Source: a virus. From it: a stretch of 51,291 nucleotides of DNA. Where the stretch lies: the IMG/VR virus record IMGVR_UViG_3300037424_000161, positions 1 through 51,291 of that record; one strand, written 5' to 3'. This document shows, in pieces, positions 409-50,417 of this stretch; within the stretch, counting starts at the first letter, position 1, and each line of letters opens with the position of its first letter. The translations under genes and the position numbers were made by a program. The notes under the pieces are model-generated. The model saw nothing but the letters and a program-made list of their open reading frames with translations, was not told where the DNA came from and did not search any database.

Positions 409-433
409 AGTTTGTTCAAAATTTAAATGAACT
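409..433. repeat. 25-bp palindromic motif, copy 1
   Basis: agtttgttcaaaatttaaatgaact; sits in the divergent control region, 57 nt upstream of the -35 at 490. Confidence 0.85.
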
Positions 434-489
434 ACATGTAGTCTCTATTAGTATAGAAGAGTAGTAATAAAATTGTACGAAATTATGTC

Positions 490-518
490 TTGACATACAC
501 CTAATTCTGTGTTATGAT
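490..518 (+). promoter_or_regulatory. Near-consensus sigma70-type promoter for the rightward arm
   Basis: TTGACA (490-495), 17-nt spacer, TGT-TATGAT (extended -10; -10 at 513-518). AGGAG at 528-532 and ATG at 544 follow. Confidence 0.6.
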
Positions 519-543
519 GGTAACAATAGGAGACTTGTATTCA

Positions 544-1167
544 ATGAGTAGTCAAGTGCAAGTTAGAGATGGTCTATATGGGTTTGAATTTAGAGATGTG
601 GATAAGCGTAGAGCTAAAGATGGCGAGAGGAAAACGTATGAGGCGAAGGCTCTATGGCAGAGACATCATGAAATTGTCAACTTGACAGCTCAGGGATATA
701 AACAAGTAGAAGTTGCTCGTATTCTAAATATAGACCCACAGACAGTCTCTAACGTCCTCAATAGTGGGTTAGGTAAATATAAGCTCTCGGAAATAAGACA
801 GGACCGAGATGAGGAAACTAAGCTCGTCGTTGAGAAAGTCCGAGTCCTCACTGAACAAGCCCTTAACATATACCAAAATATACTAGACAACGAGAATGGT
901 GCAGCTACCATTAAAGACCAGAAAGACGTAGCTGATACTGTAGTACTCGAACTCAGTGGTCTACGTGTGCCCACTCGCATACAAAGTAATTCAATCAGTA
1001 CTATACTTTCAGCTGCTGAGCTGGAGGAATTCAAACAGCGTGGGATTAAAGCCGCGCGCGAGTCTGGATTAGTAATAGATGTCACTCCTGAGGCAAAACC
1101 AGTTAAATTTGTTGAACCTGAATCACAAGTTAATGTTGGAGATCTCCCAGAATGCAGGAACAAGTAA
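544..1167 (+). CDS. HTH DNA-binding protein (candidate regulator or small-terminase-like)
   Basis: ORF 514..1167 trimmed to ATG 544 because the -10 box overlaps ATG 514. HTH-like LTAQGYKQVEVARILNIDPQTVSNVL. First gene of the rightward arm. Confidence 0.6.
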   Translation: MSSQVQVRDGLYGFEFRDVDKRRAKDGERKTYEAKALWQRHHEIVNLTAQGYKQVEVARILNIDPQTVSNVLNSGLGKYKLSEIRQDRDEETKLVVEKVRVLTEQALNIYQNILDNENGAATIKDQKDVADTVVLELSGLRVPTRIQSNSISTILSAAELEEFKQRGIKAARESGLVIDVTPEAKPVKFVEPESQVNVGDLPECRNK

Positions 1168-1427
1168 GATCATTCCTCTCTCACGACTGGACGAAGGTAT
1201 TTGCAATAATAGTAACTTTAGTAGGAATAGCAGTGGCCTTTGAGCATCGGATTACGATAGCAGAGGCAACTATCAATGACATTCAGTCGCATAAAACTGA
1301 GGATGTCACCAGATTTGAGAAAATAGAAAATGGACTATCTGGTGTGTCCATAAATAGTCTTAAACAAAGTATCATTTTAGATTCACTCGAAAAGCGGATG
1401 ACAGCACTTGAGTTGAAGAAGAGATAA
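1152..1427 (+). CDS. Membrane-anchored coiled-coil protein (holin/spanin-like by architecture only)
   Basis: 91 aa. N-terminal hydrophobic helix VFAIIVTLVGIAVAF, then a heptad-like segment. The start overlaps the upstream stop. Confidence 0.5.
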   Translation: MQEQVRSFLSHDWTKVFAIIVTLVGIAVAFEHRITIAEATINDIQSHKTEDVTRFEKIENGLSGVSINSLKQSIILDSLEKRMTALELKKR

Positions 1428-1451
1428 CCCAGCCCATCTGCCCTGGACAGT

Positions 1452-1874
1452 ATGACGAAACTTACGCTCAATCGTAGAATATTTACACAGCACTCAACTA
1501 TCGGAGAGTTGTTGATCGATGGAAAGTGGCAGTGTTGGACACTTGAGGATGTAGTAAGGAAAGGTGAGAAAATACCGGGACATACAGCTATTCCTGAAGG
1601 ACATTATGAAGTGATTCTGTCGCCCTCGAATAGATTCAAGCGACTGATGCCTTACTTACTCAATGTACCTAACTTCACAGGTATTATGATTCATCCTGGT
1701 AACACAGACGCTGACACTCATGGATGTATCTTGGTTGGTCAGACACGTAATACAGACTTCATCGGTGCGAGCAAATTGGCATTTAACGCACTTTATGCAG
1801 TCTTAACTGACTTGCTAGCACTCGACAGAGTATTCATCACCGTCACTCATATTGACGAGCTGACGTGGCCTTAG
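1452..1874 (+). CDS. Hypothetical protein, possible cell-wall hydrolase/peptidase (DUF5675-like by recollection)
   Basis: 140 aa. Segment IHPGNTDADTHGCILVG has His/Asp/Cys spacing suggestive of a metal or catalytic site. Located among small membrane proteins. Confidence 0.4.
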   Translation: MTKLTLNRRIFTQHSTIGELLIDGKWQCWTLEDVVRKGEKIPGHTAIPEGHYEVILSPSNRFKRLMPYLLNVPNFTGIMIHPGNTDADTHGCILVGQTRNTDFIGASKLAFNALYAVLTDLLALDRVFITVTHIDELTWP

Positions 1875-1897
1875 TTCATTTAAATTTTGAACAAACT
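1873..1897. repeat. 25-bp palindromic motif, copy 2
   Basis: agttcatttaaattttgaacaaact; followed within 3 nt by GGAGG and ATG 1911. Confidence 0.9.
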
Positions 1898-1910
1898 TTG
1901 GAGGTCTCAA

Positions 1911-2192
1911 ATGTCTGATGAAACTAAATTAATTGGTTCTTTGACAGTAGCTGAATTTCGCTCACTGTTCTTCCCAGATCGCTCTAGTTCATTCAGATCA
2001 CCTGAACTTATAGTGGCCCCTCCACCTCCAGCCATTCCTAAACAAGGTAAAGACTACGTAACTGTAGGTGACATGATCTCTCACACTGAGGAAGAGTGGG
2101 AGGGCATCCTTGGTTATAAAGTTCCTAAACCACAGATGCTCACTTGGTGGGTTAATGAGCCTGACAAAAAGCTTGTCATTCTTAAGGGGTAA
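1911..2192 (+). CDS. Hypothetical protein
   Basis: ORF 1887..2192 trimmed. The TTG at 1887 lies inside the palindrome, whereas ATG 1911 has GGAGG 5 nt upstream. Confidence 0.55.
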   Translation: MSDETKLIGSLTVAEFRSLFFPDRSSSFRSPELIVAPPPPAIPKQGKDYVTVGDMISHTEEEWEGILGYKVPKPQMLTWWVNEPDKKLVILKG

Positions 2193-2195
2193 CCC

Positions 2196-2414
2196 TTGGA
2201 CTTCCTCAAATCTCAGTTTGACAAAGTCTTACTATCACTACTGTTCATTGCATCGGCTATTATGACAGTTGTCCTAATGCACTGGAACATGGATACTTCA
2301 ATGATAACCTGGAGCCAGTCCCTAACGACTGGCTTTGTAGGTGCGCTTCTCACACTCATCACTGGATCTCGTTTCACTGCACGTTCTAGTGATAAACCGC
2401 CCGGAGACAAGTAA
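2196..2414 (+). CDS. Small two-TM membrane protein (holin-like)
   Basis: 72 aa with TTG start and AAGGGG 6 nt upstream. Hydrophobic segments VLLSLLFIASAIMTVVLM and GFVGALLTLITG. Confidence 0.45.
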   Translation: MDFLKSQFDKVLLSLLFIASAIMTVVLMHWNMDTSMITWSQSLTTGFVGALLTLITGSRFTARSSDKPPGDK

Positions 2415-2577: not shown

Positions 2578-3003
2578 ATGCGTAGGGTATTTCTGTTTCT
2601 GCTTCTGGCATTGCTGGCGGCTCCTGCATGGTCGCAGCAGATCACGAAGACCGTCGCCTGGGATGCGAGCTCGTCCGCAGCGACGGCACCGGTTGACAAT
2701 CCCGTGAAATACCGCCTCTACACCTGCGCCGATCAGACTTTCACCGGCTGCCAGGTGCAGGAGGCTGGGACCGCGCTCGAAATCCCGCACACATTCCAGA
2801 GCGGCACTGTATTTCAGTTCGCCACGGCCTACTGGTATGCACTCGTGGTTGACGGTGTGCCGCAAGGGGACATCGCGGAGAGCGGCAAGAGCAACGTCAT
2901 GCGGGTCACAGTGCAGATCCCTCCGGGCAACCCCGGCAATGCGAAGATCCGGGTTGTCGATGTCGAACCGACGAACAGCGGGCAGACCATTGGAGTGAAG
3001 TAA
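2578..3003 (+). CDS. Secreted protein with signal peptide, in G+C-rich island
   Basis: AGGAGG 6 nt upstream of ATG. N-terminus MRRVFLFLLLALLAAPAWSQQ is a classic signal peptide. Composition is visibly more G+C-rich than the flanks. Confidence 0.6.
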   Translation: MRRVFLFLLLALLAAPAWSQQITKTVAWDASSSAATAPVDNPVKYRLYTCADQTFTGCQVQEAGTALEIPHTFQSGTVFQFATAYWYALVVDGVPQGDIAESGKSNVMRVTVQIPPGNPGNAKIRVVDVEPTNSGQTIGVK

Positions 3004-3329
3004 TGTGTTGGCGCGGGCATGACCCGGAGCGGAGGAATAAGTACGGGCATTGCATGGACTGTCACGCAATCCTTATGCGGGCGCGACGGCACGGCAGACA
3101 GGCTCACCGGATGCCTCGTTATCGCTTGAACATTTCGGAATTTCACAGACTGACGAAAGGCAGAATGACAATCGTGGCGCAGTTAGCGGGAATCTCGCGG
3201 GACACTGTTCGATGCTGGCTCTCCGGTGCGCGTCACGCGGGCGGAAGTTGTGCGACGAACAGAGTAAGAGCGGAAGCGCTAACTGCGGTGTTTGGAATAC
3301 CTTTCGATTATTTATGGACGAGTATTTGA
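3003..3329 (+). CDS. Cys/His-rich HTH protein, in G+C-rich island
   Basis: TAATG overlap with the upstream gene. Contains CWRGH...HCMDCH and the HTH-like MTIVAQLAGISRDTVRCWLSG. Competing ORFs in this G+C-rich stretch lower confidence. Confidence 0.45.
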   Translation: MCWRGHDPERRNKYGHCMDCHAILMRARRHGRQAHRMPRYRLNISEFHRLTKGRMTIVAQLAGISRDTVRCWLSGARHAGGSCATNRVRAEALTAVFGIPFDYLWTSI

Positions 3330-3473: not shown

Positions 3474-3498
3474 AGATCATTCAAAAATTGAACGAACT
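3474..3498. repeat. 25-bp palindromic motif, copy 3
   Basis: agatcattcaaaaattgaacgaact; abuts the inverted repeat 3407-3415/3465-3473; ATG 3500 follows after 1 nt. Confidence 0.85.
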
Positions 3499-3499
3499 A

Positions 3500-4561: not shown

Positions 4562-4997
4562 AGTACATGATAATAGATACCTACGCCCACAGCGATGGGC
4601 AGAGCTTCTCAAAGTAATAGAGAAGTTTCGTGTAAAAACAGTAATTGAGTTTGGCTGTGGTGTTTCTACACTACTGATGGGTCATAGAGGTATCCGAGTT
4701 GACACTTATGAAACTGATCCTTTCTACCTAGACTTCGTCAAGTCTCTCAATCCACCTAACGTACTCTTTCACCTTCACAATAACGTAAACATAGATGTAT
4801 CTGGCACTTACGACATGGCTCTAGTCGACGGAGTCCTCCCCCGACAGCCTCAGCTAAAGGCCGTCCTGCCACTTACCAGACTAATCGCAATAGATGACTT
4901 TGGCCCACTTTATAAACGCGAGCTTGTACCACTGTTAGGCAATCATACTCGGCTTAATCCAGGCGCACCGTTAATGGCTATTTTCAAGATCGAATAA
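4503..4997 (+). CDS. Class I SAM-dependent methyltransferase-like protein
   Basis: 164 aa. Motif I-like VIEFGCGVST, acidic VDTYETD and DMALVDG. Overlaps the GT gene by 59 nt. Confidence 0.55.
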   Translation: MAQTQRQATDAQIYKLWLSKVHDNRYLRPQRWAELLKVIEKFRVKTVIEFGCGVSTLLMGHRGIRVDTYETDPFYLDFVKSLNPPNVLFHLHNNVNIDVSGTYDMALVDGVLPRQPQLKAVLPLTRLIAIDDFGPLYKRELVPLLGNHTRLNPGAPLMAIFKIE

Positions 4998-5011
4998 ATT
5001 TTGAACGAACT
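4987..5011. repeat. 25-bp palindromic motif, copy 4
   Basis: agatcgaataaattttgaacgaact; overlaps the stop of 4503..4997; GGAGA and ATG 5029 follow. Confidence 0.85.
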
Positions 5012-8469: not shown

Positions 8470-9432
8470 ATGGCTATACTTTGGATGGGTGGAGAAGACA
8501 TAAGCTTTCCCAATGGAGCAAGTCCTCCAGTAGGTGTCACTACATCAGGATGGTTTAGAAGTAACTATGCCCGCTGTGCACTATCTATGGAGTTACATAC
8601 TGGATATAGTAAAGCATTTTCTGGTGGAGGTGTTACCTCGTGCTGGCTATCTGTGCGGTTTTATTTACTAAATGGTTACTATACTGCTCAGCGAAGTATA
8701 GGGCTTATTAAAAATAGTACTACCAATAGAGGAATATTCTTTGGGTGCCTTTCTGCCAATAAACTATCAATATTTAAGTATAATGGAACTACAGAGACTA
8801 CTCTAGTCACAGAGGTTGGTGCATCTGCAGTGGGACTAAATAAAATAGATATGCAGATCATTGACTATGGTGGATCTGGGACAGTTAATCTCTATGTTAA
8901 TGGCGTATTAGTTGCCACCTATACTGGTGATATTAGTGTTGATGGTGTAAGTGATTTAGATTCAGTCTGGCTCGGACCCAATGGAGCTGAAATTGCAGTA
9001 TCTGAGATTATAGTAGCTAGTACTGATACACGGGCTAAATCACTACGTACACATTCTATCACCGGTGCTGGAGATGCAAATGCTTGGCATGGAACATATG
9101 CAGATATTGATGAGGTTGCAATTAATGATGTAGATTTTGTATACTCAGATGCTGCAGCTGACGATATTCAGTGTGCCCTTGCAGACTCACCAGCCGGGAC
9201 ATTCGCTGTAGATGCAATTAAGGTCGAAGCCCGTGCTTGTATAGGTGCTGGTAGCCCTATTGATGTACTAAAACTCGGTGTTAAGCATGGCGGATCTATC
9301 GATGTAGACGCTGGACAGACTCTAGATGAATCGTGGAAGACTTACGAGAGAATGACAACGACTATTAACGCGAACCCTATTACGACAGCTATATTAGATG
9401 CAGCTCAGCTTAACCTTAGGTCTGCCGCATAG
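8470..9432 (+). CDS. Hypothetical structural protein (beta-rich, jelly-roll/LamG-like guess)
   Basis: 320 aa, beta-strand-rich composition, immediately upstream of portal. Confidence 0.55.
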   Translation: MAILWMGGEDISFPNGASPPVGVTTSGWFRSNYARCALSMELHTGYSKAFSGGGVTSCWLSVRFYLLNGYYTAQRSIGLIKNSTTNRGIFFGCLSANKLSIFKYNGTTETTLVTEVGASAVGLNKIDMQIIDYGGSGTVNLYVNGVLVATYTGDISVDGVSDLDSVWLGPNGAEIAVSEIIVASTDTRAKSLRTHSITGAGDANAWHGTYADIDEVAINDVDFVYSDAAADDIQCALADSPAGTFAVDAIKVEARACIGAGSPIDVLKLGVKHGGSIDVDAGQTLDESWKTYERMTTTINANPITTAILDAAQLNLRSAA

Positions 9433-9455
9433 ATCATATAAAATTTGAACGAACT
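9431..9455. repeat. 25-bp palindromic motif, copy 5
   Basis: agatcatataaaatttgaacgaact; overlaps the stop of 8470..9432 and lies 8 nt before portal ATG 9464. Confidence 0.9.
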
Positions 9456-13081: not shown

Positions 13082-13106
13082 AGTTTGCTTAAAATTCAAA
13101 CGAACT
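13082..13106. repeat. 25-bp palindromic motif, copy 6
   Basis: agtttgcttaaaattcaaacgaact; 19 nt upstream of capsid ATG 13126, with GAGG in between. Confidence 0.85.
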
Positions 13107-15364: not shown

Positions 15365-15389
15365 AGTTCGTTCAAAATTTCAACGATCT
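15365..15389. repeat. 25-bp palindromic motif, copy 7
   Basis: agttcgttcaaaatttcaacgatct; 9 nt upstream of ATG 15399. Confidence 0.85.
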
Positions 15390-21597: not shown

Positions 21598-22485
21598 ATG
21601 GGTGGAGATAAAGATACACAGACTCAGATCATTCGCTATGCACCTTATTTAGAGCAACACCATCAGGAGATATTGGATATAGTAAGGTCAAATAGGACTA
21701 GACTCCTGGTAAACTCTACAGGTTTCGGCCCACCTGATAGCTCTCCATATAAAGATTATGTAGACTTTAGTATTGAAGATGCATTCTTCGGTGCTGGATA
21801 TGCACTAGGATCATTCCCTTCCCTCTACGATATGTATGGGAAGTTCATGGCGGGTCTAGATATTGAAGTACTATTCGATCAGACGTTTGAAGATACTATC
21901 AATGGAACAGTAGTTGACAATGCTATCTCAGCTGAGGCTGATAGATTGGAAGATGATCTAGTTCAGAACGCTATACCAAGACTTGAGACTGGATTAAGAG
22001 ACATTAATTCAGTAATGAGTTCCTCCTTCGTTGTCGGTAGGGCTATGATGGAGACAGCTAGGACGAAAGCTATCTCTCGATTCAGTGCTGAGCTTAAAGC
22101 TAGGTTAATTCCAGTAGCTGCTGATAGATGGGCTCGTCACCTTGAGTGGAATAGATCTGTTGTAGAGATGTATGCACAGGTACTTAAGTTCTATTTCTTG
22201 TCAAAGATAGATGTAGACAACCATAACTTTGAGATAGCTGCTAAGAATGCTCTCTGGCCATTTACTATCCTTCAGTATGAGATATCAGCGCTAGGTGTGC
22301 TTAATGGTGCGAAAGATATAACGAGTGATGTAGCTGGTGCATCGAAAGCATCTAAAATATTAGGTGGAGCTATGATGGGAGCAAGCGCAGGTGCCATGAC
22401 TGGAGCTGCTATAGGCTCCGGTGGAGGGCCCATCGGTGCAGCTATTGGTGCAGGTGTGGGCGCATTAGTTGGTTGGTTATCATAG
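21598..22485 (+). CDS. Internal virion/ejection-like protein with glycine-zipper C-terminus
   Basis: 295 aa ending GGAMMGASAGAMTGAAIGSGGGPIGAAIGAGVGALVGWLS, a hydrophobic Gly/Ala zipper. Confidence 0.5.
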   Translation: MGGDKDTQTQIIRYAPYLEQHHQEILDIVRSNRTRLLVNSTGFGPPDSSPYKDYVDFSIEDAFFGAGYALGSFPSLYDMYGKFMAGLDIEVLFDQTFEDTINGTVVDNAISAEADRLEDDLVQNAIPRLETGLRDINSVMSSSFVVGRAMMETARTKAISRFSAELKARLIPVAADRWARHLEWNRSVVEMYAQVLKFYFLSKIDVDNHNFEIAAKNALWPFTILQYEISALGVLNGAKDITSDVAGASKASKILGGAMMGASAGAMTGAAIGSGGGPIGAAIGAGVGALVGWLS

Positions 22486-22508
22486 TTCGTATAAAATTTA
22501 AATGAACT
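22484..22508. repeat. 25-bp palindromic motif, copy 8
   Basis: agttcgtataaaatttaaatgaact; overlaps the stop of 21598..22485; GGAGG and ATG 22522 follow. Confidence 0.9.
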
Positions 22509-29700: not shown

Positions 29701-30271
29701 GGAATTAGTTACATCAGGAAGTATGTGGTCTTACCTTGGAGGTAAGGCTTACTCATCAGTGTTTGGTGATCTACCGAAGGAAGAGAAGGAACAGCATCTT
29801 GCGATGACACTATCGAAGATCCCTGCAATTAATAGATTCTTCGGTGTTACTAATCCTTACTCAAAATATGCAGCTAGCATAACTGAAGCTGAGGCCGAGA
29901 GTGCTACAAAAAGGTGGATTGAGACAAGGGAATTAGATGCTAGAATCAATGGATACCTTTATAAAGGTAATGTGAAGAAGAGTGAGATCTTTGATTATAT
30001 CAGAGCGCAGAAAGATCCTAACACACAAGAGAGATTGTTCGAGCGCTATGTATTAGCAGAAGGTGTGAAGAACTTACCTAATCGTAGCTTCTGGATGAGG
30101 TTGCAGAATCTAACAACTGAGGCTAGAGCTAAGGTATTTGTAGACAGAATGAATAAATCATCTGAAGCTGAGAAGGTTCAGCTGAACAAGGAAGCTGGAC
30201 AAGCAGCTGCAATAGGTGGAATACTGTCAGATGATTTCTGGGTTGAAGTAGCTAAGTTGAGGCGGAAGTAG
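23696..30271 (+). CDS. Giant (~2191 aa) internal/ejection-type polyvalent protein
   Basis: ORF open from 23627; ATG 23696 overlaps the upstream stop by 14 nt. Features: duplicated LILPFE motif, Gly-rich hydrophobic segments, an A/K/E low-complexity stretch, and a conserved-looking block NPIVRLRFNDRTDAQGNKVLFIEELQ. Confidence 0.7.
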   Translation: MPLSDQDTLILPFEQGGKAKEKGQASSSLILPFERSEPTPIVPSQPSVRPNLPYGQATSISAGKPYEPSLAQNVVGGIAKLLGVPYDPALGLDPERAKADALVQRKANEKGVPLYQYRNSPEMLEQFVGEFGNMMTLGAAPTLRKAILGTEEVKPSGSAGIIGAQLGSLAGLITGPGKWAGMALGGAIRFLPGATQEMQLSHRIIVEALRDSATLGTAMGASALGDAASQVTFSDAAGVIWDRMKSGAMTGALFGVAKGMFPKEGWEKGARLLSGLVMLNVQRKIEGGWEKNPFADRPVGEVLFDIGLDAFFLWKGLPKNQFDSLVKDVSDNVDRVVATNQKIEGLKDVPEGELKKAKEKKLAIEQKQNQLEVEQAAKKAAAAAEAAEKAKVKAEEAAKAKVKKAPETEEERKVRMAKVRAAGKVKVPTEEAKPIEPVVTPVEQPKPELLQTEIPKVMEQAEVPAAEPPVKKLTKPQQARVDKVKLLSAEGKDPGQIAFKMNMKEAEVRSILGMEPPKLILPGEKVEPVKPSEKIDYLSEGPKAKVEPKVRSKIEQTPPTPSEPSTGLVVTPSDMKALEAKFGPNWDELSDKEIGDFLATKPTEVKPAVEVPLVEERSDIEKYYNKDIEKITQSEFDKYFDLMEAGEVGVKTEPITNVDLQTGTPEPAELVGDDSIYSADKAATDARTKLYQNNKAVANNISELLSRNPVLPKDPGATAWKLFNDVNRWLHGEEVDIAGTRGFLSELAARADEFKDQFIGEDYPQSFYDWKEMISDGANWARKVDRTKIERTGQTLYSGVDPFKLYEGLQNWFSQLRKDAERKLPNKATGEQISNTLRKGVTQDEWNRSGLSKLLVAGQKYTKEEVIGTIDKNLPVLKDVVLDKEANINEVEHFRAKAREIKEVLDQDPTNVELRQQWKDAIGRIDVALIERDRMGPKFSSYVEPGGSNYKELFVTAPLDRSRYIEFEKAHPQPEYYSSELYYDNLKNSWIKDNTWQDGHPDYSDIENPIVRLRFNDRTDAQGNKVLFIEELQPPNPENQAKMPPEFVKRWREIGMKRAIKYAIDGGYDRVAWTTGEMQANRYTLERQVNRIDWARREPDEGMRKGAEGYYLINVTTKDGGVIDYYPKPNELSELVGKELAEKILSSDKKLGIIEGVDLKIGGQGIKKIYDQDLPNVARRLGGKVEEIKLHLGKDIDVSKIVESDNLWYVDQHPFPYPTREAAIRALSGDITRPSESSVPSFSLSPFKQSPYQPTLYSGIPVDKIKQTIKDIFSRPNIEKEDVPDTLSGALAAGRRGFKYMEDARKMKEFNVLEAAKITQETFTRAAIERSGNIARDIINKLGNKGIDVLQSMYLSRGGHPRATNMLEQMSKEVYNGLSRNELKIFDTVDLARRVLSIANYKTKKQFKPPKDMSVETSAIIDTLYRYKSVNGLENLTDEQVAKIERSHQAYVDWMKKALSDMYNEGQLITEEEYNNLVIHNYRKLGKVNEVYDRSYRVEIGGKKRTIYDSGVESLQRGKDTDILEPSSKVMALEVFNRAYGRIMHNKANLELLKLARDVKDNPFVRFKESKEDKIPRGFQRFFVYEKGQRKAIYLSPDMAKEWLTSSPEVSFRFAKVMRFLSGTPIVRTFATGIEWGFALANVPRDVMHLWYAARQFTDGRWEGVYNANLPVFALQLGKDVQETFSDAALRKGLYDDYMKYGGGMDLLTLQSRLFVRGRHLDSSVSKYEDFLGYFGVTSELATRLAIMNRVIKNRAAERGISYAEARKNPDILKDATFSARDYMDFSQGGSMIKAMDNVIPYLNASIVGTRSLMRAFKPGSGTALTSSWKLAQFGLLVGGATAYFYKENPETMEALKGNIAAQNNFVIPLGDEYGFEDQEGQMRYPFLKIPLDPGQKFFKTFFEAATMKWLGYDVDIDRVTGSLKQMSPVSGTELPPVQAAILGYVTNKDFWTNEDIWKKTPKPLPYPMSAEEFIPGQTGEVYTAIGEKTGLSPERIKYAAEELVTSGSMWSYLGGKAYSSVFGDLPKEEKEQHLAMTLSKIPAINRFFGVTNPYSKYAASITEAEAESATKRWIETRELDARINGYLYKGNVKKSEIFDYIRAQKDPNTQERLFERYVLAEGVKNLPNRSFWMRLQNLTTEARAKVFVDRMNKSSEAEKVQLNKEAGQAAAIGGILSDDFWVEVAKLRRK
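25342..25366. repeat. 25-bp palindromic motif, copy 9 (intragenic)
   Basis: agttcgttcaaaaatcgaacaaact inside the giant CDS, encoding VRSKIEQT. Confidence 0.8.
26047..26071. repeat. 25-bp palindromic motif, copy 10 (intragenic)
   Basis: agatcgtacaaaaattgaacgaact inside the giant CDS, in the same codon phase as copy 9, encoding DRTKIERT. Confidence 0.8.
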
Positions 30272-31493
30272 TTTGTTCATTTTTTAAATGATCTTCTTTC
30301 GTGCTCAGAATGTGAATCATAGTTTCAGCCCCAGGCCTTCGTATAAGTACTACGTGTTTAGCTACCTCCAGTGTAGTTAGCACTCGATCAATAGTTATTT
30401 TATCCACGTCACCCTCAAACCTTCTCGCAAACTGACTCATCGACACATCAGGTGTTAGTGAGCTCTGAAAGAACATAATAGCATCGTTGATGATAGAGGA
30501 GATATCAGACTTACCGATACCTCTGAAGACAGTACCCATCTTAATCTCTACCTCATTCAATATAGTAGATGCACGATCAAAGTCGTCACTAGTTATAACA
30601 AGTTCATTACTACGACTAGCAGCACAGACCATAGCAAGTGAATTAAGATGGTTACGACGGCGTCCATTGTAGCCGTCAAACTTCTTATCATGAAAAGGTG
30701 GATTCTTAGCCGCACTGTAACACCAGTCTGTGTAATAATTAGCAGCGTCACCTGTATAGTGATAGCATCCACTAATGAGTGCTATCTGTTCTAGATCATG
30801 TATTAGGTATTGCTGTAGCTCTATTTCCTTCTGTGTAGAGCTAGGAAATATGACGAGTTTCTCACGGCGCTCCTCATTAACAAAGATAATACGACTAGTG
30901 AGCCCACCACCAATAGCTTCCATAGGTAGGGAGGACTGTATGTTATCAGGAGTAGTACCAGCAAGGATATTAACCCAGACACCAACGATTTCTTCCTTAT
31001 CCCGCTTGATTGTGTCATAGGACCACCTCTCATGACAGTCGTACCAGTCACATAGGGCACTGATTAACTCTCGATTATGATAGCCGAGGAATACAGTAAA
31101 TTCATTACTGAAGATTGTTTGAGAGGAATGATAGAGTTGCTTTCCAGTCTCCATGTCTATGTCGGTTAGATTAGTATCTTTCATCCTACGAATGAGTGCT
31201 TGAAGGGATGTGGCCTGAGCACTTAACCTAACTGCCGGCACCTGAGTAATTATATCTGAAGCATACTTCATAGCTGTGCCCTTACCGGTAGCTGAAGGAC
31301 CAACTAAGACAACGTAAAAGTTAGGATAGAAAACTAAGGATATACCAAGTTCTACACGTACCTTTCGTTGAAGTGCAGCAGCAATAGTTGAGATGGCTGA
31401 CCACTTACGAAATAATGTAGGAGGTTCAGAGTTCTCGGTAAGCAGCATGAAACCAGCGATCCAATCTGGTAGGTGACGTTCTTTAGATGGCAT
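30252..31493 (-). CDS. P-loop NTPase, DUF3987/primase-associated helicase-like
   Basis: 413 aa. Walker A VLVGPSATGKGT is preceded by a region resembling DUF3987-type replicative helicases. Last gene of the leftward arm. Confidence 0.5.
   Translation of the reverse strand: MPSKERHLPDWIAGFMLLTENSEPPTLFRKWSAISTIAAALQRKVRVELGISLVFYPNFYVVLVGPSATGKGTAMKYASDIITQVPAVRLSAQATSLQALIRRMKDTNLTDIDMETGKQLYHSSQTIFSNEFTVFLGYHNRELISALCDWYDCHERWSYDTIKRDKEEIVGVWVNILAGTTPDNIQSSLPMEAIGGGLTSRIIFVNEERREKLVIFPSSTQKEIELQQYLIHDLEQIALISGCYHYTGDAANYYTDWCYSAAKNPPFHDKKFDGYNGRRRNHLNSLAMVCAASRSNELVITSDDFDRASTILNEVEIKMGTVFRGIGKSDISSIINDAIMFFQSSLTPDVSMSQFARRFEGDVDKITIDRVLTTLEVAKHVVLIRRPGAETMIHILSTKEDHLKNEQTTSAST
30270..30294. 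repeat. 25-bp palindromic motif, copy 11 (degenerate) at the convergence point
   Basis: agtttgttcattttttaaatgatct; overlaps the giant-gene stop (30269-30271) and the 3' end of minus-strand CDS 30252..31493. Confidence 0.6.
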
Positions 31494-31513: not shown

Positions 31514-31816
31514 CTACTGTTCTTTAACAAAGATACCGTTGACCATCTTACCACGACGGTCCTTTATTTGGATGTAAGCATAGAGATAGCACTGAGTTAG
31601 AGTAACTCCATTAAATCCAGCTATCATAGTAAGAACAACTATCATATCACCGATGCTATCTATAGTACCTTCTAAATCACTATCAGTTAGTGCATCACCA
31701 AGCTCAACAAACTCTTCTTTTAGTTTTGTAAGTTGTCCAAGATCAGAAGATTGTTCAAAAATTGCACGATCTTCAGCCCACGATAGGACTTTCTTCTCTA
31801 TCTCTTCGAAGTTCAT
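31514..31816 (-). CDS. mazG: MazG-like nucleotide pyrophosphohydrolase
   Basis: 100 aa. Contains KLKEEFVELGDAL and SIGDMIVVL helices typical of small phage MazG-like proteins. Overlaps the polymerase 3' end by 44 nt. Confidence 0.55.
   Translation of the reverse strand: MNFEEIEKKVLSWAEDRAIFEQSSDLGQLTKLKEEFVELGDALTDSDLEGTIDSIGDMIVVLTMIAGFNGVTLTQCYLYAYIQIKDRRGKMVNGIFVKEQ
31748..31772. repeat. 25-bp palindromic motif, copy 12
   Basis: agattgttcaaaaattgcacgatct; directly abuts the polymerase stop (31773-31775) and lies inside the mazG N-terminal coding region. Confidence 0.7.
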
Positions 31817-34315: not shown

Positions 34316-34340
34316 AGTTCGTATAAAATTTGAACGAACT
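34316..34340. repeat. 25-bp palindromic motif, copy 13
   Basis: agttcgtataaaatttgaacgaact. On the minus strand it is followed by GGAGACAT-ATG of the polymerase (34307). Confidence 0.9.
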
Positions 34341-35671
34341 TATGCACCAGCCTGCTTCATCAAATGAGCTTTAACCAGGAAACTATCCTTATAACCTTTG
34401 CTAAGCTCAAAACCCACAGCTGACATGCCAAGAGAATGAGCTGCAAGAAGACCATTACCGCTACCGAGAAATGGAATAAGTACTCGAGAACCCTGAAAGG
34501 CAAAGGTATCATAAAGCTCCTTCATCAACTCAATAGGTCGTTCGGTAGGGTGAGTCTTACTTTGTGCTGGCACAGGACTAAAATGAAAGTCATTTCCATG
34601 ACCTGCTTTATTGAGGGCTGGCTGACCCTTCCACGCATAGAAGAACATTTCATAGGAGTTAGCGAGTCGTGTAGAGGGATTCATGTTCTGACCTGGAGTC
34701 CCTTTAGTCCAAATACCTACCATACGAGTAGTTTCAAAGCCAGCGCTTTCAATCCAGTTAAATATATGCTCAAACCATGGCTGAGGAGCAAACCAACAGA
34801 TTAACCAGGAGTGAGCTGCCATTACACGGTAGCATTCCTTAAAAGTACGAAGCATTAGGTCAGGGTAGGAGTCCTTACTCATCTCATTGTAGTTGTCAAG
34901 AATGTACTGGGACTCACCATCTTTCTTTTTCTGGTCTGTTAAGTTGATTGCATAAGGTGGATCTATCTCTACAAGGTGCATAAAGTTGTCAGGGATCTCC
35001 TTAACCCCCTCGAAGAAGTCCTTTATAATGAAGCGCTTGGCTAGATCATGTAAGTCTGTATTAACAGATTCAGCCTCAAGCTTCTGTGCAATAACTTGCT
35101 TAACCATTGCTTCGTCGACTTTCTTGAGAACCTTAGATGCGTCAGAGGCCGTCTTACAGTTTTCGAATAGCTCTGGGAATGCTTCACGAGCCTGAGCGCG
35201 TTTGACAGCTTCAGTTACAGTAGCAGGTGACGCAGCTCCGATCATATCAGCTGTGTCACGAGTACCCCAACCAGTCTGACCAGGACCAGGTGCTTTGACG
35301 CCGTGTAGTTCTTGTTGCATCTGATGAATTTCGAGAGTGAGTCTATCAAACTCCCAGTACTCCATATCTTTACGATAGAAGTTTTCTGACTTCTCTATAA
35401 TCTTCATCTCGAGGTCGGAAAGATCTTCTTCGTAGATACGTACTGGTATAAGATCCACAGAGTTACGACTAAGCACAGTAAACCTACGCTCACCAGCAAG
35501 AAGTATATAGGTGCCATCTTTGTTATCCTTTACAGCGAGTGGTTGGATGAGACCGGATTCCTTCATATTAGCTTCAAGGCCATCTAGGTCACCCATCTCT
35601 TTACGCACTCGCTCATTTATAATGACTGAACCAGTAGCAATCATTCCAACTTTACCTACAGCTATTGTCAT
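34340..35671 (-). CDS. ParB-like nuclease domain fused to DNA (N6-adenine/N4-cytosine) methyltransferase
   Basis: 443 aa. ParB box LLAGERRF in the N-terminal third. DPPY (VEIDPPYA), then HPTERP and FLGSGNG, which is the beta-class motif order. Confidence 0.7.
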   Translation of the reverse strand: MTIAVGKVGMIATGSVIINERVRKEMGDLDGLEANMKESGLIQPLAVKDNKDGTYILLAGERRFTVLSRNSVDLIPVRIYEEDLSDLEMKIIEKSENFYRKDMEYWEFDRLTLEIHQMQQELHGVKAPGPGQTGWGTRDTADMIGAASPATVTEAVKRAQAREAFPELFENCKTASDASKVLKKVDEAMVKQVIAQKLEAESVNTDLHDLAKRFIIKDFFEGVKEIPDNFMHLVEIDPPYAINLTDQKKKDGESQYILDNYNEMSKDSYPDLMLRTFKECYRVMAAHSWLICWFAPQPWFEHIFNWIESAGFETTRMVGIWTKGTPGQNMNPSTRLANSYEMFFYAWKGQPALNKAGHGNDFHFSPVPAQSKTHPTERPIELMKELYDTFAFQGSRVLIPFLGSGNGLLAAHSLGMSAVGFELSKGYKDSFLVKAHLMKQAGA

Positions 35672-38113: not shown

Positions 38114-38138
38114 AGTTCGTTTAAAATTTGAATGAACT
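38114..38138. repeat. 25-bp palindromic motif, copy 14
   Basis: agttcgtttaaaatttgaatgaact. On the minus strand it is followed directly by GGAGGTCAAA-ATG (38103). Confidence 0.9.
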
Positions 38139-42713: not shown

Positions 42714-43059
42714 TAGGTGGGTCCTTATCTATGTCATGCATAGGTGAGGTACCTATCATAGATTTCATCTGATCGATGAGTTGGTTGGGAGCAGATGAAG
42801 TAATTTCTTTACGGAAGTTCTCAGTAGGTCGTCGATCACCCATGCCGAGGGGTGGATAACGTAGATCGTTTGATTTTTGAACGATCTTTTCGTCACTAAA
42901 AGCTGGGACTGTAGCTGGATCGAAGTACACTGATAGGTTGATAGGAACTTCAGGACAGATATGAGGTACTACAGTGTCCAAGATCTGACTATATTTCTTG
43001 GACACTATTTTGATGAGAGGTAAGCGAGTGTTACAACGAGAACAGTAGATGAATTTCAT
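42706..43059 (-). CDS. Hypothetical protein with N-terminal CxxC
   Basis: 117 aa; contains an intragenic copy of the palindrome. Confidence 0.5.
   Translation of the reverse strand: MKFIYCSRCNTRLPLIKIVSKKYSQILDTVVPHICPEVPINLSVYFDPATVPAFSDEKIVQKSNDLRYPPLGMGDRRPTENFRKEITSSAPNQLIDQMKSMIGTSPMHDIDKDPPNE
42863..42887. repeat. 25-bp palindromic motif, copy 15 (intragenic)
   Basis: agatcgtttgatttttgaacgatct inside CDS 42706..43059. Confidence 0.7.
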
Positions 43060-44970: not shown

Positions 44971-44995
44971 AGATTGTTTGAAATTTGAACAAACT
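44971..44995. repeat. 25-bp palindromic motif, copy 16
   Basis: agattgtttgaaatttgaacaaact; upstream (minus sense) of AGGAG and ATG 44946. Confidence 0.85.
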
Positions 44996-46572: not shown

Positions 46573-46787
46573 TTTCGTTCTCCCTTCAGTGCTTTACGAG
46601 CAGCATTGCCATACATATATTCATTGGCATCGGTCGCCAGATGCCCACCGTGCAAATTGTCGGCGGCAATCCATTCCAGCGCCTCTCGATACCGATTGCG
46701 CTCCTCCCGACAGGCGGCGAGGTCGCGTTCCAACTCAACAATACGTTTTCTACTCTCGTTTCCAAACGCATCAGGATCATCCATCAT
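46569..46787 (-). CDS. Small coiled-coil protein, G+C-rich island
   Basis: Trimmed to ATG 46787, which has an ATGA overlap with the DUF550 stop and GGAGGAG upstream. Translates MMDDPDAFGNESRKRIVELERDLAACREE.... Confidence 0.55.
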   Translation of the reverse strand: MMDDPDAFGNESRKRIVELERDLAACREERNRYREALEWIAADNLHGGHLATDANEYMYGNAARKALKGERK

Positions 46788-47630: not shown

Positions 47631-47655
47631 AGTTCATTCAAAAATTAAACGAACT
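47631..47655. repeat. 25-bp palindromic motif, copy 17
   Basis: agttcattcaaaaattaaacgaact; overlaps the stop of 47654..47836. Confidence 0.85.
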
Positions 47656-47836
47656 ATAACCACAATAGAATGGCAGCCCATACTGCCATAGCTAATGATT
47701 CTAGGATCTTCAATAGGGTTTCAGTCCTACTATACTTTACAGTTCTTGGAAACTCGAGAAATGTTAAGGATAGTAAGTGTACTATAAATCCTAACATACT
47801 CAGATAAAATATAAGCATAATGAAGAGTCTCATCAC
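47654..47836 (-). CDS. Small two-TM membrane protein
   Basis: 60 aa; hydrophobic segments LFIMLIFYLSMLGFIVHLL and LAMAVWAAILLWL. Confidence 0.5.
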   Translation of the reverse strand: MMRLFIMLIFYLSMLGFIVHLLSLTFLEFPRTVKYSRTETLLKILESLAMAVWAAILLWL

Positions 47837-48268: not shown

Positions 48269-48270
48269 AG

Positions 48271-49103: not shown

Positions 49104-49127
49104 GAATCGTTAATAGTTTAACGAATC
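49104..49127. repeat. Shorter related palindrome (possible degenerate motif copy or hairpin)
   Basis: gaatcgttaa-tagt-ttaacgaatc: 10-bp arms with one mismatch. Sits between the stop at 49126 and the -35 at 49089. Confidence 0.4.
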
Positions 49128-49296
49128 ACTCAACTTCGAGCGATTCAAAGTACTTCCTTGCCACCTTCAGTTCCCTCTCCGACTCAACCAACTTCTCCTT
49201 CATATCTTTATGGAACACAGATTTGGGCGAGTAAGCTGTAATGTACCCCTTCACTCTCAGTACATCATTCTCGATTGCCTTAACTTGTCTGAACAT
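49126..49296 (-). CDS. Small hypothetical protein (56 aa, below ORF-track cutoff)
   Basis: GAGGG upstream of ATG 49296. Translates MFRQVKAIENDVLRVKGYITAYSPKSVFHKDMKEKLVESERELKVARKYFESLEVE. Sits downstream of a consensus promoter. Confidence 0.45.
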   Translation of the reverse strand: MFRQVKAIENDVLRVKGYITAYSPKSVFHKDMKEKLVESERELKVARKYFESLEVE

Positions 49297-49323
49297 TTGT
49301 TACCCTCTCATTAATCATGAGCC

Positions 49324-49353
49324 ATTATACCACACCTTATTCACAGTTGTCAA
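49324..49353 (-). promoter_or_regulatory. Consensus sigma70-type promoter (TTGACA-N18-TATAAT with TGG)
   Basis: Minus strand reads TTGACAactgtgaataaggtgTGGTATAAT. Confidence 0.65.
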
Positions 49354-49378
49354 TAAGCAATCATGCTCAATCGACAAT

Positions 49379-49403
49379 AGTTCGTTTAAATTATAAACGA
49401 ACT
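49379..49403. repeat. 25-bp palindromic motif, copy 18
   Basis: agttcgtttaaattataaacgaact; overlaps the stop of 49402..50106. Confidence 0.85.
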
Positions 49404-50106
49404 ATTTTGGCTTAACTACATTCTTCATCAAATAGTCTATGTCGATAGGAGCATTCTCCAATGCTATACGTTCTGCCTCACGTTTAGCATTATACTCATC
49501 TAACTCCCCATCACTAATCCCTTCTCTAAATCCCTCTCCAGGCTTATGAGCTGGTGGAACTGGATCGTCTACAATAAGTCCACTTTCCCTCGCTCTCTTC
49601 AATCCCTCCTGTTTCCTCACATACTCTTCATGCATCTCCATTTGTTTAGCTAATTTAATCTCTTCCATCTTCTTCTGTGCTATCTTAACCAAGTCCTCAT
49701 TACTCAACTCAGTGTCGATAGGCGAAGGTTCCACACTCCTTCTATTATGTAGTATATTATAATCTATTGGTGTATAGTCACGCGGATCTATTCCCTCACT
49801 CCTCAGCGTCTCAAACCTAAGTGCTGCTCCAACTTTCTTATAAGCACGTGCCTTCAAACTCCCTTGATACAGTCCCCTCTGCTCTAGATGCCGATGAGCT
49901 TCAGTCACACTCTCTATAACAACAGGCATTGAATTACTTCTCTTTATAGTGTCGCATAACAAGTCAAGGCTCCACGCTATCAACTGACTCATCGTCCTAA
50001 CTCTAAACCCCTCACTCTCCCAATAATTAACTAACTCTGCCAAGCTAACCATACTCACTCTAGCCTGCGCTGGAATACTACTCTCCTGCTTCACATCTCT
50101 TTCCAT
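49402..50106 (-). CDS. Hypothetical early protein sharing an ARESGL motif with CDS 544..1167
   Basis: ORF 49402..50214 trimmed to ATG 50106 (AGGAG 8 nt upstream). The longer form would start inside an 18-bp inverted repeat. Confidence 0.55.
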   Translation of the reverse strand: MERDVKQESSIPAQARVSMVSLAELVNYWESEGFRVRTMSQLIAWSLDLLCDTIKRSNSMPVVIESVTEAHRHLEQRGLYQGSLKARAYKKVGAALRFETLRSEGIDPRDYTPIDYNILHNRRSVEPSPIDTELSNEDLVKIAQKKMEEIKLAKQMEMHEEYVRKQEGLKRARESGLIVDDPVPPAHKPGEGFREGISDGELDEYNAKREAERIALENAPIDIDYLMKNVVKPK

Positions 50107-50156
50107 GACCTTAGCTCCTATGTTAGATGGTTGTAATGTGTAACCATGTTTGCGTG

Positions 50157-50318
50157 TTAAACGGTTGTCTGTCCCCATATGCGTAGCAGCACTACGCATA
50201 ACATTGCCAAACATGTAGTGATATATTGCCTACTTGCAATCATGTATACGAAATCTGTTATGTGTTTTTTTTGTAGTGAGTAGTGCACCCCTACCCCTAT
50301 GGACAGACAACCGTTTAA
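50157..50318. repeat. Perfect 18-bp inverted repeat pair enclosing 126 bp
   Basis: ttaaacggttgtctgtcc (50157-50174) is the exact reverse complement of ggacagacaaccgtttaa (50301-50318). A 9-bp-stem hairpin tatgcgtag-cagca-ctacgcata lies inside at 50178-50200. Confidence 0.9.
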
Positions 50319-50319
50319 C

Positions 50320-50345
50320 ATCATAACATCATAACAAATCATAAC
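50320..50345. repeat. Iteron-like direct repeats ATCATAAC x3
   Basis: ATCATAAC at 50320-50327, 50328-50335 and 50338-50345, plus a partial catcata at about 50353. Confidence 0.8.
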
Positions 50346-50392
50346 ACCACTACATCATACACGTCAAGGTATAATTCCGTACATTTATCCTT

Positions 50393-50417
50393 AGTTCGTT
50401 CAAATTATGAACAAACT
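50393..50417. repeat. 25-bp palindromic motif, copy 19
   Basis: agttcgttcaaattatgaacaaact in the long non-coding region. Confidence 0.85.

Follow-up and report, generated by a model that had tools for sequence, protein, structure and literature searches.

What reads a 25-bp palindrome that occurs in 19 copies, spread evenly over the 51-kb genome of an uncultured phage? The stretch analysed here (the window, 51,291 nucleotides) had previously been described in a sequence-only reading, which placed the 19 copies and proposed several roles for them. The analysis below points to double-stranded DNA sites for a symmetric dimer and, as their likeliest reader, to a ParB-like methyltransferase encoded by the phage itself, a reading to which we give roughly even chances.

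The palindrome set

All 19 of the start positions given by the sequence-only reading hold a palindrome match: 16 copies are recovered at up to three mismatches from its consensus, and the remaining three (13082, 30270 and the 42863/44971 class) by a position weight matrix (PWM). Scored with a symmetrised PWM, the 19 sites reach 29-38 bits, the rest of the window stays below 8 bits everywhere, and the best score in 30 Markov shuffles is 13.6 bits; these scores show that every copy is genuine and that the set is bimodal. The shuffled-genome background check that had been proposed agrees, with no palindrome match in 100 dinucleotide shuffles. On the plus strand, positions A1, G2, T4, A19, A22, C24 and T25 are invariant, and copy 409 is the exact reverse complement of copy 1873. 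Inter-site gaps in the window are more even than chance when the null is uniformly random positions rather than random gene junctions (CV 0.59 versus 0.93, P=0.009), and the spacing tests together give CVs of 0.36-0.59 against 0.93 (P≤0.009).

Placement relative to genes and promoters

The gene-boundary context described earlier mostly stands. An upstream stop codon is overlapped or abutted at 1873..1897 (TAG of 1452-1874, with a Shine-Dalgarno sequence, SD, 3 nt downstream), 4987..5011 (which contains the TAA of 4503-4997, SD 5 nt downstream), 9431..9455 (TAG of 8470-9432, upstream of the portal gene), 22484..22508 (TAG of 21598-22485), 34316..34340 (TAA of the ParB-methyltransferase gene, abutting the GGAG of the polymerase gene; orthologous in 39 contigs), 44971..44995 (TAG of 44994-45167, upstream of Zn-finger and ligase genes; 25 contigs), 47631..47655 (TAG of 47654-47836) and 49379..49403 (TAG of 49402-50214). 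Two further copies of this kind had been called intragenic: 30270..30294 instead shares bases with the TAG that ends the 2214-aa gene, at the convergence point of the arms (orthologous in 39 contigs), and 31748..31772 starts directly behind the DNA polymerase stop codon. The three other intragenic assignments hold, namely 25342..25366 and 26047..26071 inside the 2214-aa gene (the former orthologous in 10 contigs, the latter at about residue 807 and at the same protein position in 18 contigs), and 42863..42887 inside a 117-aa zinc-ribbon gene, where it encodes KIVQKSNDL (28 contigs).

A copy at 3474..3498 lies upstream of a glycosyltransferase gene, those at 13082..13106 and 15365..15389 lie upstream and downstream of the major capsid gene (orthologous in 16 and 13 contigs), and 38114..38138 follows an SSB-like gene with an SD directly after it (36 contigs); the capsid and polymerase genes each have a site on either side, and three copies flank a variable accessory region at 1.9-5.0 kb. 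At about nine sites, SD and start codon follow within 9-25 nt. We attribute this proximity to stops and ribosome-binding sites not to a role in translation, since those few bases are the sole non-coding DNA of a compact genome.

In the early region, 409..433 lies between divergent promoters with -35 hexamers at 269 (-) and 490 (+) and is orthologous in 30 related contigs, and the copies at 49379 and 50393..50417 each precede, by exactly 25 nt, the -35 hexamer of a near-consensus sigma70 promoter (12/12 for the former, TTGACG-18-TATGAT for the latter), an arrangement also found in relatives. Intrinsic terminators are almost absent from the genome, and the structural arm has just one sigma70-like promoter.

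Orthologous sites in related genomes

The element runs through the whole family: in over 60 related contigs there is a palindrome variant particular to each, at about 0.35 sites per kb, and every contig spanning the locus has both the ParB-methyltransferase gene and a palindrome family. Sites occupy orthologous positions across relatives, at the arm junction in 39 contigs, behind the ParB-methyltransferase stop likewise in 39, and at two intragenic positions (28 and 18 contigs); among the 18 orthologues of copy 26047, the sequence follows each genome's own motif type. More distant relatives have palindromes unrelated in sequence, and in a Desulfofustis phage five successive inter-site gaps measure 6.9-7.8 kb. 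Crude repeat searches returned no dispersed palindrome in Microcystis phage Mel-JY34, despite a syntenic ParB-methyltransferase homologue at 25% identity, which counts against the ParB-methyltransferase as reader. A scan of 185,579 species genomes gave no prophage copies, nor does the motif occur as a repeat in any of the bacterial genomes covered.

A ParB-methyltransferase as candidate reader

The candidate cognate protein (34340..35671, minus strand, 443 aa) combines a ParB-CTPase fold, a ParB-type HTH and a beta-class N6/N4 DNA methyltransferase. Its ParB boxes are GERR at about residues 60-63 and ENFYRKD at about 96-102 (the ENxxR box), its HTH spans about residues 132-175 (...DTADMIGAASPATVTEAVKRAQAREAFPELF), and the methyltransferase motifs are DPPY at about 245 and FLGSGN near the C-terminus. 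It matches PF02195 (ParB_N) and PF01555 in Pfam, and Noc/ParB/Spo0J in profile searches against the PDB (E 1e-9 to 1e-10). In Foldseek, an AF2 model of residues 1-235, the part with the ParB N-terminal domain and the DNA-binding domain, aligns to Noc, ParB-parS and KorB along about 200 columns (E 4.5e-10). A point against the candidate is the lack of the C-terminal domain by which ParB proteins canonically dimerise; the methyltransferase stands in its place.

Does the recognition helix change with the palindrome? Partial correlation with motif distance was computed for sliding 20-aa segments, 1,321 in all, from 29 core families alignable between relatives. The HTH segments of the ParB-methyltransferase rank 2, 3 and 5 of 1,321, with a partial correlation of 0.50 (n=44) that is given as a rank and not as a permutation P-value; one unrelated segment, a capsid N-fragment (n=20), ranks above them. 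The methyltransferase domain has no motif correlation (0.11, partial -0.11). Helix T(D/N/G)-AS goes with motif core AATTAAAT, helix SK with YGTTTAA, also in the distant genomes L048 and L075, and helix SQG with CCATT. Motif type and phylogeny are largely confounded. L018 carries an SQG helix in a protein that otherwise groups, as does its polymerase, with SK-type genomes. For some motif differences the helix shows no corresponding change (TTC versus TTT at position 9; L014/L064 versus L012).

The sequence-only reading had suggested an operator for a dimeric regulator, of which the dimeric DNA site is favoured by the evidence; the three HTH proteins it named as binders are not, and the ParB-methyltransferase, which it overlooked, is the better candidate. 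The 544-1167 product occurs universally, but the PQTVSNTLNS of its recognition helix is unchanged across very different palindrome types, and it is probably a small terminase, judging by its homology (E 6e-22) to a terL-adjacent gene so annotated in the Desulfofustis phage. A homologue of 3003-3329 is missing from every relative. For the all-helical product of 49402-50106 no matching PDB fold was found; its RHH-like strand does not follow the motif, and covariation with palindrome type is absent.

How might such a protein act? Each of the two 12-bp half-sites would be bound by one HTH domain, in the manner of ParB at parS, Noc at NBS and KorB at OB, and the protein, possibly a sliding, nucleotide-gated clamp, could then act on nearby DNA from roughly evenly spaced entry points. 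The fused methyltransferase would thereby modify site-bearing phage DNA preferentially, with selective self-marking or protection as the outcome. Of these steps, we infer the binding, the dependence on a nucleotide, the spreading and the targeted methylation. A KorB-like effect on transcription could be a compatible second output; two of the copies are placed 25 nt ahead of early promoters and a third at the convergent junction. ParB-CTPase/N6_N4 methyltransferase fusions have been described as both frequent among phages and uncharacterised (PMC12704722). Our literature search found no DNA target reported for this common class; if the proposed reading is true, the palindrome family would be a candidate target for it.

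A possible alternative: another phage-encoded regulator

A possible though distinctly less probable explanation is that the palindromes are operators for another dimeric regulator, one of the small, rapidly evolving early products. Like the multi-site repressors of temperate actinophages, it would block host RNA polymerase or insulate against it where genes meet, in a stoperator-like manner, and would also act at early promoters. Evidence for a duplex site bound by a dimer applies equally to such a protein, and the lineage-specific change of motif resembles repressor/stoperator divergence in Cluster A mycobacteriophages (PMC6550527). The exact 25-nt distance of 49379 and 50393 from strong early promoters, conserved in relatives, also fits, as do the scarcity of intrinsic terminators and the sites at the convergent junction and flanking the capsid and polymerase genes; moreover, many ORFs of the early region (47-51 kb) are without detectable homologues in relatives and lie outside the covariation test. 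Against it, the proteins scanned include no integrase, repressor or partition gene, prophage copies were not found in the species genomes, and the conserved DNA-binding candidates besides the ParB-methyltransferase (the TerS-like HTH, an 85-aa RHH-like protein and a 234-aa early protein) show no motif covariation. Even spacing and conserved intragenic sites are likewise unexpected for promoter-linked operators.

Duplex site or hairpin

A nucleic-acid hairpin is improbable, be it a DNA cruciform or hairpin or an RNA stem-loop that serves processing, stabilises 5'/3' ends or brings about factor-dependent termination. This holds even though the consensus is a perfect inverted repeat located at the borders of cistrons, its two arms shift jointly from lineage to lineage, and folding at -8 to -10.5 kcal/mol is possible for copies 49379, 50393 and 47631. 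Within genomes, the arms show no compensation: pairing is 81.1% versus 82.1±1.3% in shuffles, the arm covariation score is 0.105 versus 0.124, and double deviations are not enriched among 543 distinct sites from relatives. Disruptive C·A mismatches in the sense strand outnumber tolerated G·U wobbles, 18 to 12 in the window and 174 to 94 at position 5/21 in relatives. RNA ΔG ranges from 0 (one copy) to -10.5 kcal/mol with a median of about -2.7, a U-tract is absent, no Rfam family matches, and coding-strand A-richness is the only strand asymmetry. Independent arm deviation, weak hairpins and the excess of C·A over G·U together favour double-stranded DNA read by a symmetric dimer over the RNA hairpin proposed earlier.

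Promoters and mobile repeats

The earlier suggestion of a phage-specific middle or late promoter is very improbable. Copy number and density are near those of T7-like phage promoters, which are likewise dispersed and number about 17, the palindromes lie just upstream of ribosome-binding sites, their lineage-specific sequences occupy orthologous positions, and a single sigma70-like promoter serves as the only one in the structural arm. The element is symmetric, however, and has no direction relative to transcription; the 0-20 nt from site to SD/ATG leave no space for a -10 element and start site; the most conserved copy lies at the convergent junction with no gene downstream; and no RNA polymerase or sigma-like gene was found, a 2186-aa protein being without RNAP match.

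Hardly more credible is a mobile or recombinogenic repeat (MITE/REP-like, or the module-exchange boundary put forward before) lacking a trans-acting reader, which would suit the three copies bordering the accessory region, the reverse-complementary pair 409 and 1873, and the gain or loss of genes at such repeats in Cluster O phages (PMC4351075), but sites are not in excess at presence/absence breakpoints (8/53 versus 6/27 at conserved junctions, P=0.54), orthologous positions carry whichever palindrome type the genome has, two coding positions are conserved although inserting 25 bp would break the reading frame, and neither a transposase nor a repeat of the motif in any bacterial genome scanned was found.

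Comparison with known systems

Genomes of Cluster A mycobacteriophages contain 20-30 scattered stoperators each, for the most part at gene boundaries (PMC6550527, PMC9283540). Like the palindromes, stoperators have a per-genome consensus that drifts along with the binding protein (here a candidate binder); two-arm architecture, DNA Pol I and a Cas4-family nuclease are also similar. They are, however, asymmetric, transcription-oriented 13-mers bound by the monomeric immunity repressor of temperate phages, whereas the sites described here are symmetric, unoriented 25-mers in a genome where repressor and integrase were not found.

Cluster O mycobacteriophages carry a 17-bp palindrome, TGTTCGGNNNCCGAACA, in more than 30 dispersed copies of unknown function, with no binder proposed and no lineage-specific variation described (PMC4351075). 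Both elements are dyad-symmetric, often between genes or near gene starts, and without meaningful orientation; sequence, length and host group differ. The phiC31 repressor binds conserved inverted repeats (CIRs), about 18 palindromic operator copies across the phage genome. Many palindromic copies and one binding protein (here a candidate) are common to both cases, but the CIRs lie at promoters, as operators for the repressor of a temperate Streptomyces phage.

Two reports describe phage ParB-CTPase/N6_N4-methyltransferase fusions of identical domain architecture, a class enriched in phages (PMC12704722), and ParB-activated phage T-dioxygenases in which, as in the candidate, the ParB fold is repurposed for DNA base modification (PMC13229309). 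Cognate DNA sites are not reported in the available parts of either paper, while the phage studied here offers an HTH domain together with a candidate site family.

With ParB-parS, Noc-NBS and KorB-OB the candidate shares the ParB N-terminal fold, the GERR and ENxxR boxes and the adjacent HTH, and the phage shares many dispersed palindromic (putative) sites. Noc has about 70 NBS, and KorB 12 OB on RK2. Unlike those proteins, the candidate has a methyltransferase in place of the C-terminal dimerisation domain; no ParA was found in the phage, and the candidate role would be DNA modification or regulation rather than segregation, with no sign of lysogeny. At 25 bp the sites exceed parS (16 bp), NBS (14-16 bp) and OB (13 bp) in length, a further point against the candidate; they have an A/T-rich centre and share no sequence with any of the three. 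The most conserved site, level in contig count with the arm-junction copy, abuts the stop codon of the ParB-methyltransferase gene and lies directly downstream of that gene, as parS often does.

A dispersed palindrome family and its placement

The 25-bp palindrome (AGWTCGTTCAAA) reported by the sequence-only reading was recovered at all 19 coordinates, from 409 to 50393, by a pattern search allowing up to 3 mismatches complemented by direct reading of the sequence. Scored with a symmetrised weight matrix, all 19 copies reach 29–38 bits, the rest of the 51,291 bases stays below 8 bits throughout, and the best score in shuffled sequences is 13.6 bits. Positions A1, G2, T4, A19, A22, C24 and T25 never vary, and the few variable positions accept a single alternative base each (T/A at 3 and 8, C/T at 5 and 9, G/A at 6). 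No gradient in site quality is seen between early and late regions. The copies 409–433 and 1873–1897 are exact reverse complements that flank a TerS-like gene, a gene for a 91-aa membrane protein and a DUF5675 gene, with no longer similarity seen in their flanks.

The placement at gene boundaries, close to ribosome-binding sites, also holds: 10 copies share bases with the upstream stop codon or lie against it, and at about nine a Shine-Dalgarno sequence and a start codon come within the next 25 nt, a tight squeeze that is most simply a packing effect. Among the five copies initially considered as intragenic, three truly are; the copy at 30270 lies where the two gene arms converge, a junction that has no terminator, and that at 31748 right after the polymerase stop codon. 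The two early-promoter sites (49379 and 50393) precede -35 hexamers by exactly 25 nt, an arrangement shared by many relatives, and the A/T-rich segment directly upstream of the -35 at these two sites could be an UP element.

Palindromes occur about every 2.7 kb in the window, and every 7 kb in a distant relative. They are more evenly spaced than random positions, the null being uniform positions and not gene junctions: the coefficient of variation of spacing is 0.59 in the window (P 0.009), 0.48 in the relative L004 (P 0.0006) and 0.36 in the relative L056 (P <0.0002), for a random expectation of 0.93. The Desulfofustis phage (L307, OP947158) has five consecutive gaps of 6.9–7.8 kb round its circular genome.

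Conservation and diversification among relatives

Protein-anchored IMG/VR scans yielded more than 300 loci, merged into partial or complete genomes. Absence of the element from relatives had been listed among the observations that would jointly refute the initial reading; every merged genome carries about 0.35 sites per kb, or 15–19 sites per genome. Each relative has its own palindrome variant, such as AGWTCGTTTAAT, AGWTAATTAAAT, AGWTCCATTAAT, AGTCCGTAAAAT and AGTTCGTCCAAA in close relatives, heterologous types including the partial forms AGATAATTAAAT... and AGATCCATTAAT... More distant members harbor unrelated palindromes of 23–27 bp, always with an A/T-rich centre (for example CCTCATTGAAAWTTTCAATGAGG, AACTATGGTCAATWATTGACCATAGTT and CTTYGTTTNAAANTTAAACRAAG), and the Desulfofustis phage has its own 25-bp palindrome, GCTATGTCCCAAWTTGGGACATAGC, at 244, 2246, 7683, 15469, 23054, 29965 and 37108.

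Site positions are orthologous between genomes: the site at the arm junction (30270) and that at 34316, after the stop codon of a ParB-methyltransferase gene and before the polymerase gene, are each found in 39 contigs, the site at 38114 in 36, that at 409 in 30, and the intragenic sites at 42863 and 26047 in 28 and 18, respectively. At intragenic sites, the DNA tracks each genome's own motif and the reading frame is kept. The site in the zinc-ribbon gene encodes K-F/I-V-x-x-L-N-x-L, and TTTAAT-type genomes have TTGAAT there because a stop codon is avoided. In the relative L061, an oriented 9-mer (GGCAAAACT) corresponded to Walker-A coding sequence (GKT) and not to a motif. The cultured Microcystis phage Mel-JY34 (L349, PP438425) has the synteny of ParB-methyltransferase, polymerase, DUF3987 and giant genes in common with the window; crude repeat searches revealed no dispersed palindrome family in this phage, and the CGGCAATGTTGCCG-like palindromes that they did reveal form one local cluster at 42450–43360, near the early region.

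A duplex DNA site rather than an RNA, promoter or mobile element

Among the explanations proposed from sequence, an operator bound by a dimeric regulator survives best, in that a symmetric dimer on duplex DNA is favoured, while the three helix-turn-helix (HTH) proteins named as its possible binders fail, as detailed in the next section. An RNA hairpin acting as RNase III site, terminator or stabiliser would call for maintained pairing and a stable fold, and neither is observed. In the window the two arms vary independently, 81.1% of cells being paired vs 82.1±1.3% after the 3' letters are exchanged at random between copies, with an arm covariation score of 0.105 vs 0.124 in shuffles. Across 543 distinct sites of relatives, double deviations at a pair do not exceed the expectation under independence, and there is no compensation. 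Folding energies of the 25-mers as sense RNA run from 0 to -10.5 kcal/mol, with a median of about -2.7, and C·A mismatches, which disrupt pairing, are more numerous than G·U wobbles, which are tolerated. The U-tract is absent, as stated earlier against a terminator, and searches gave neither an Rfam family match nor a tRNA. With respect to transcription, the palindrome is asymmetric only in that its coding strand is rich in A. The independent arms, the weak folds and the excess of C·A over G·U thus indicate that the selected object is duplex DNA, read half-site by half-site, which, judged from the sequences, is the signature of a symmetric dimer.

A phage-specific promoter of the T7 type is difficult to reconcile with a symmetric site whose copies also occur at a convergent junction and inside genes, and no RNA polymerase or sigma gene was detected among the window genes. 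The 2214-aa protein was considered as a virion RNA polymerase, and PDB, Pfam and PHROG give no support for it. A boundary sequence promoting recombination is not borne out by comparison with relatives, as sites are not enriched at breakpoints of gene presence/absence. Neither does the motif behave as a REP or MITE, its positions being orthologous, its copies not enriched at breakpoints, and bacteria devoid of it as a genomic repeat: it is absent as such from 185,579 species genomes, with multi-copy matches restricted to small contigs of one MAG. The motif clustering that a host-factor site or host repeat would show appears in no bacterial genome scanned. With neither breakpoint enrichment nor a bacterial repeat, mobile elements and host-factor sites are excluded, and the pattern points to co-evolution with a reader encoded by the phage. 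The contigs of this 'Brevinema andersonii' MAG (L317, L328, L338 and L348; DYKD01000126, 094, 257 and 350) are small, have about 9–10x coverage and contain several palindromes of the window type; their probable source is a related phage whose fragments ended up in the MAG by binning, which is a weak hint at best to the host.

A ParB-methyltransferase as candidate reader

Which phage protein reads these sites? From the sequence comparisons, we consider it about as likely as not that the palindromes are the sites recognised by a ParB-like methyltransferase (ParB-MTase; 34340–35671(-), 443 aa), an assignment made because ParB, Noc and KorB bind multi-copy palindromic sites (parS, NBS and OB, respectively). 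Every contig spanning the locus has both the ParB-MTase gene and a palindrome family. The protein displays an N-terminal ParB-CTPase fold with the nucleotide-binding boxes LLAGERRF and ENFYRKD (Pfam PF02195, E 1.2e-8), and a profile of its N-terminal 235 residues matches Noc, ParB and Spo0J (E 7e-10 to 1e-7), the alignment including the GERR and ENxxR boxes. An HTH domain directly follows in the AF2 model (pLDDT 74; Foldseek E 4.5e-10 to 1e-6), which aligns over 180–230 columns with Noc, the ParB-parS complex 6T1F, Spo0J and KorB, covering both the N-terminal and DNA-binding domains. Its HTH motif, DTADMIG..S..TV..A.KRA...FPELF, parallels TQEELA..GKSRS.V.N.LRLL.LPE, and the Pfam HTH_ParB model has no match in the protein. 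The C-terminal half is a beta-class DPPY N6_N4 methyltransferase.

The HTH segment is also the part of the protein that varies with the motif. Distances in residues 141–185 (HTH) correlate with motif distance (Spearman 0.41; partial 0.24 given polymerase distance), the corresponding values being 0.25 and 0.04 for the N-terminal domain, and 0.11 and -0.11 for the methyltransferase domain. Whole-protein distances were uninformative in the 29 core families because they are dominated by phylogeny. In a scan of these families, 1,321 twenty-residue windows were each controlled for the rest of their own protein. HTH windows of ParB-MTase rank 2, 3 and 5 of 1,321 (partial Spearman 0.50, n=44; a rank, with no permutation P), and lead the ranking when it is limited to families represented by at least 40 genomes, one irrelevant window being higher in the full set. 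These tests cover alignable families, small unalignable early proteins falling outside.

The turn and recognition helix differ with motif type: T(D/N/G)-ASVS(T/M) in AATTAAAT genomes (TD), (G)VSKAT/S in YGTTTAA genomes, to which the distant L048/L075 clade also belongs (SK), S/T-Q-G in CCATT genomes (SQG), and S-P in the window's clade (SP), the window helix being GAASPATVTEAV. The relative L018 combines a CCATT motif with a Q-G helix, yet its polymerase and the rest of its ParB-MTase group with SK-type genomes, which makes this a phylogenetically independent co-switch. Some motif differences occur without a matching helix change.

The HTH proteins first put forward fail as readers. The product of 544–1167, universal in the group and with a LuxR/sigma-70 region 4-like HTH, has a recognition helix that is invariant across motif types; it is homologous (E 6e-22) to the terL-adjacent gene of the Desulfofustis phage, annotated as small terminase, and is separated from terL, in the clade of the window, by variable accessory genes that span 4 kb. 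The candidate at 3003–3329 has no homologue in relatives, and the early protein at 49402–50106, all-helical in its AF2 model and without PDB match, falls into two HMM subfamilies, neither tracking the motif. An 85-aa RHH-like protein (36272–36529) and small proteins at 35847–36059 and 41674–41868 were discarded, their DNA-facing segments being invariant.

Possible function and relation to known systems

Given the fused domains, nucleotide-binding boxes that are intact and sites that are evenly spaced, we propose, tentatively and with clearly less assurance than the cognate-site assignment, that ParB-MTase loads at the palindromes and acts on flanking DNA, thereby aiming methylation at the phage genome. 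A ParB clamp gated by nucleotide and carrying a DNA methyltransferase would load at the palindromes as ParB does at parS. Only these phage-specific sites would give the enzyme access to DNA, on which it would slide and methylate the phage genome, and not host or competitor DNA. The outcome would be a site-targeted, self-restricted epigenetic marking, whose site/HTH specificity would diversify between lineages in the manner of immunity specificities. A KorB-like influence on transcription is compatible with two sites lying 25 nt upstream of -35 hexamers and one at a convergent junction.

The system differs from ParABS partition, which includes ParA and a ParB with a C-terminal dimerisation domain, as the window protein has the N6_N4 methyltransferase in that place and no ParA-like match was found among the proteins scanned. 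Cluster A stoperators are likewise dispersed, genome-specific sites that drift with their protein; however, they are asymmetric, oriented with transcription, and belong to the immunity repressor of temperate phages (PMC6550527, PMC9283540), whereas the window sites are symmetric, no integrase or repressor was found among the proteins scanned, and the scanned genomes contain no prophage copies. Fusions of ParB-CTPase and N6_N4-methyltransferase are described as enriched in phages, among the commonest ParB architectures there, and uncharacterised in function and DNA target (PMC12704722); phage thymidine dioxygenases are activated by ParB-like proteins said to be without a DNA-binding domain (PMC13229309). 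No report tying a ParB-methyltransferase to a site family was found in the literature.

The locus offers a testable pairing of protein and site, with natural specificity variants in more than 60 genomes. If the link is true, the way in which ParB loads at parS would have found a second use, directing a DNA-modifying enzyme to a single replicon, and dispersed phage palindromes noted before without explanation, such as the more than 30 copies of a 17-bp palindrome in Cluster O mycobacteriophages (PMC4351075), would be accounted for; if it fails, these uncultured phages still possess a family-wide system of protein-binding sites that co-evolves and is evenly spaced.

Genome organization and additional features

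The window is a complete phage genome without close GenBank relative. Its last ~91 nt (51201–51291) repeat nt 36–126 (within 1–126), so that the assembly, ~51.17 kb long, is circular or terminally redundant, and the 124-aa gene at 50910–51284(-) is consequently the first downstream of a leftward promoter at 269–242. This small protein and the 130-aa product of 45226–45618(-), which both carry QS.(A/M)RS in a central segment and end in a ...EL.TKA.K tail, look paralogous from their sequences; a family search gave no match for either.

The + arm (0.5–30.3 kb) carries the TerS-like gene, accessory genes, terL, portal, capsid and tail genes and the gene for the 2214-aa protein, and the - arm, read from 50.3 down to 30.3 kb, early genes followed by those for a ligase, a Cas4-type nuclease, a Sak4-like ATPase, an SSB-like protein, ParB-MTase, DNA Pol I and a DUF3987 primase-helicase. 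Near-consensus sigma70 promoters are confined to 45–51 kb and 0–0.5 kb, and terminator-like hairpins in the window are at chance level. Over the 38 kb from 6000 to 44000, neither sigma70-like promoters nor intrinsic terminator-like hairpins exceed chance, the promoter at 42212–42183(-) excepted; a strong terminator (45185–45211(-)) lies just beyond this span.

The major capsid gene (13126–15307) is split into pieces at 13126–13299 and 14231–15307, which in relatives are 96–111 nt apart within one in-frame ORF. The window's insert of ~930 nt, with an HNH-endonuclease-like ORF (13268–14113) that occurs in no relative, is likely an intron, intein or homing-endonuclease insertion. Finally, annotated genes for a MazZ-like dATP/dGTP pyrophosphohydrolase (46784–47188(-)), a family-2 glycosyltransferase (3488–4561(+)) and an NAD-dependent epimerase/dehydratase (36761–37927(-)) could take part in nucleotide or sugar modification, possibly with a link to DNA modification.
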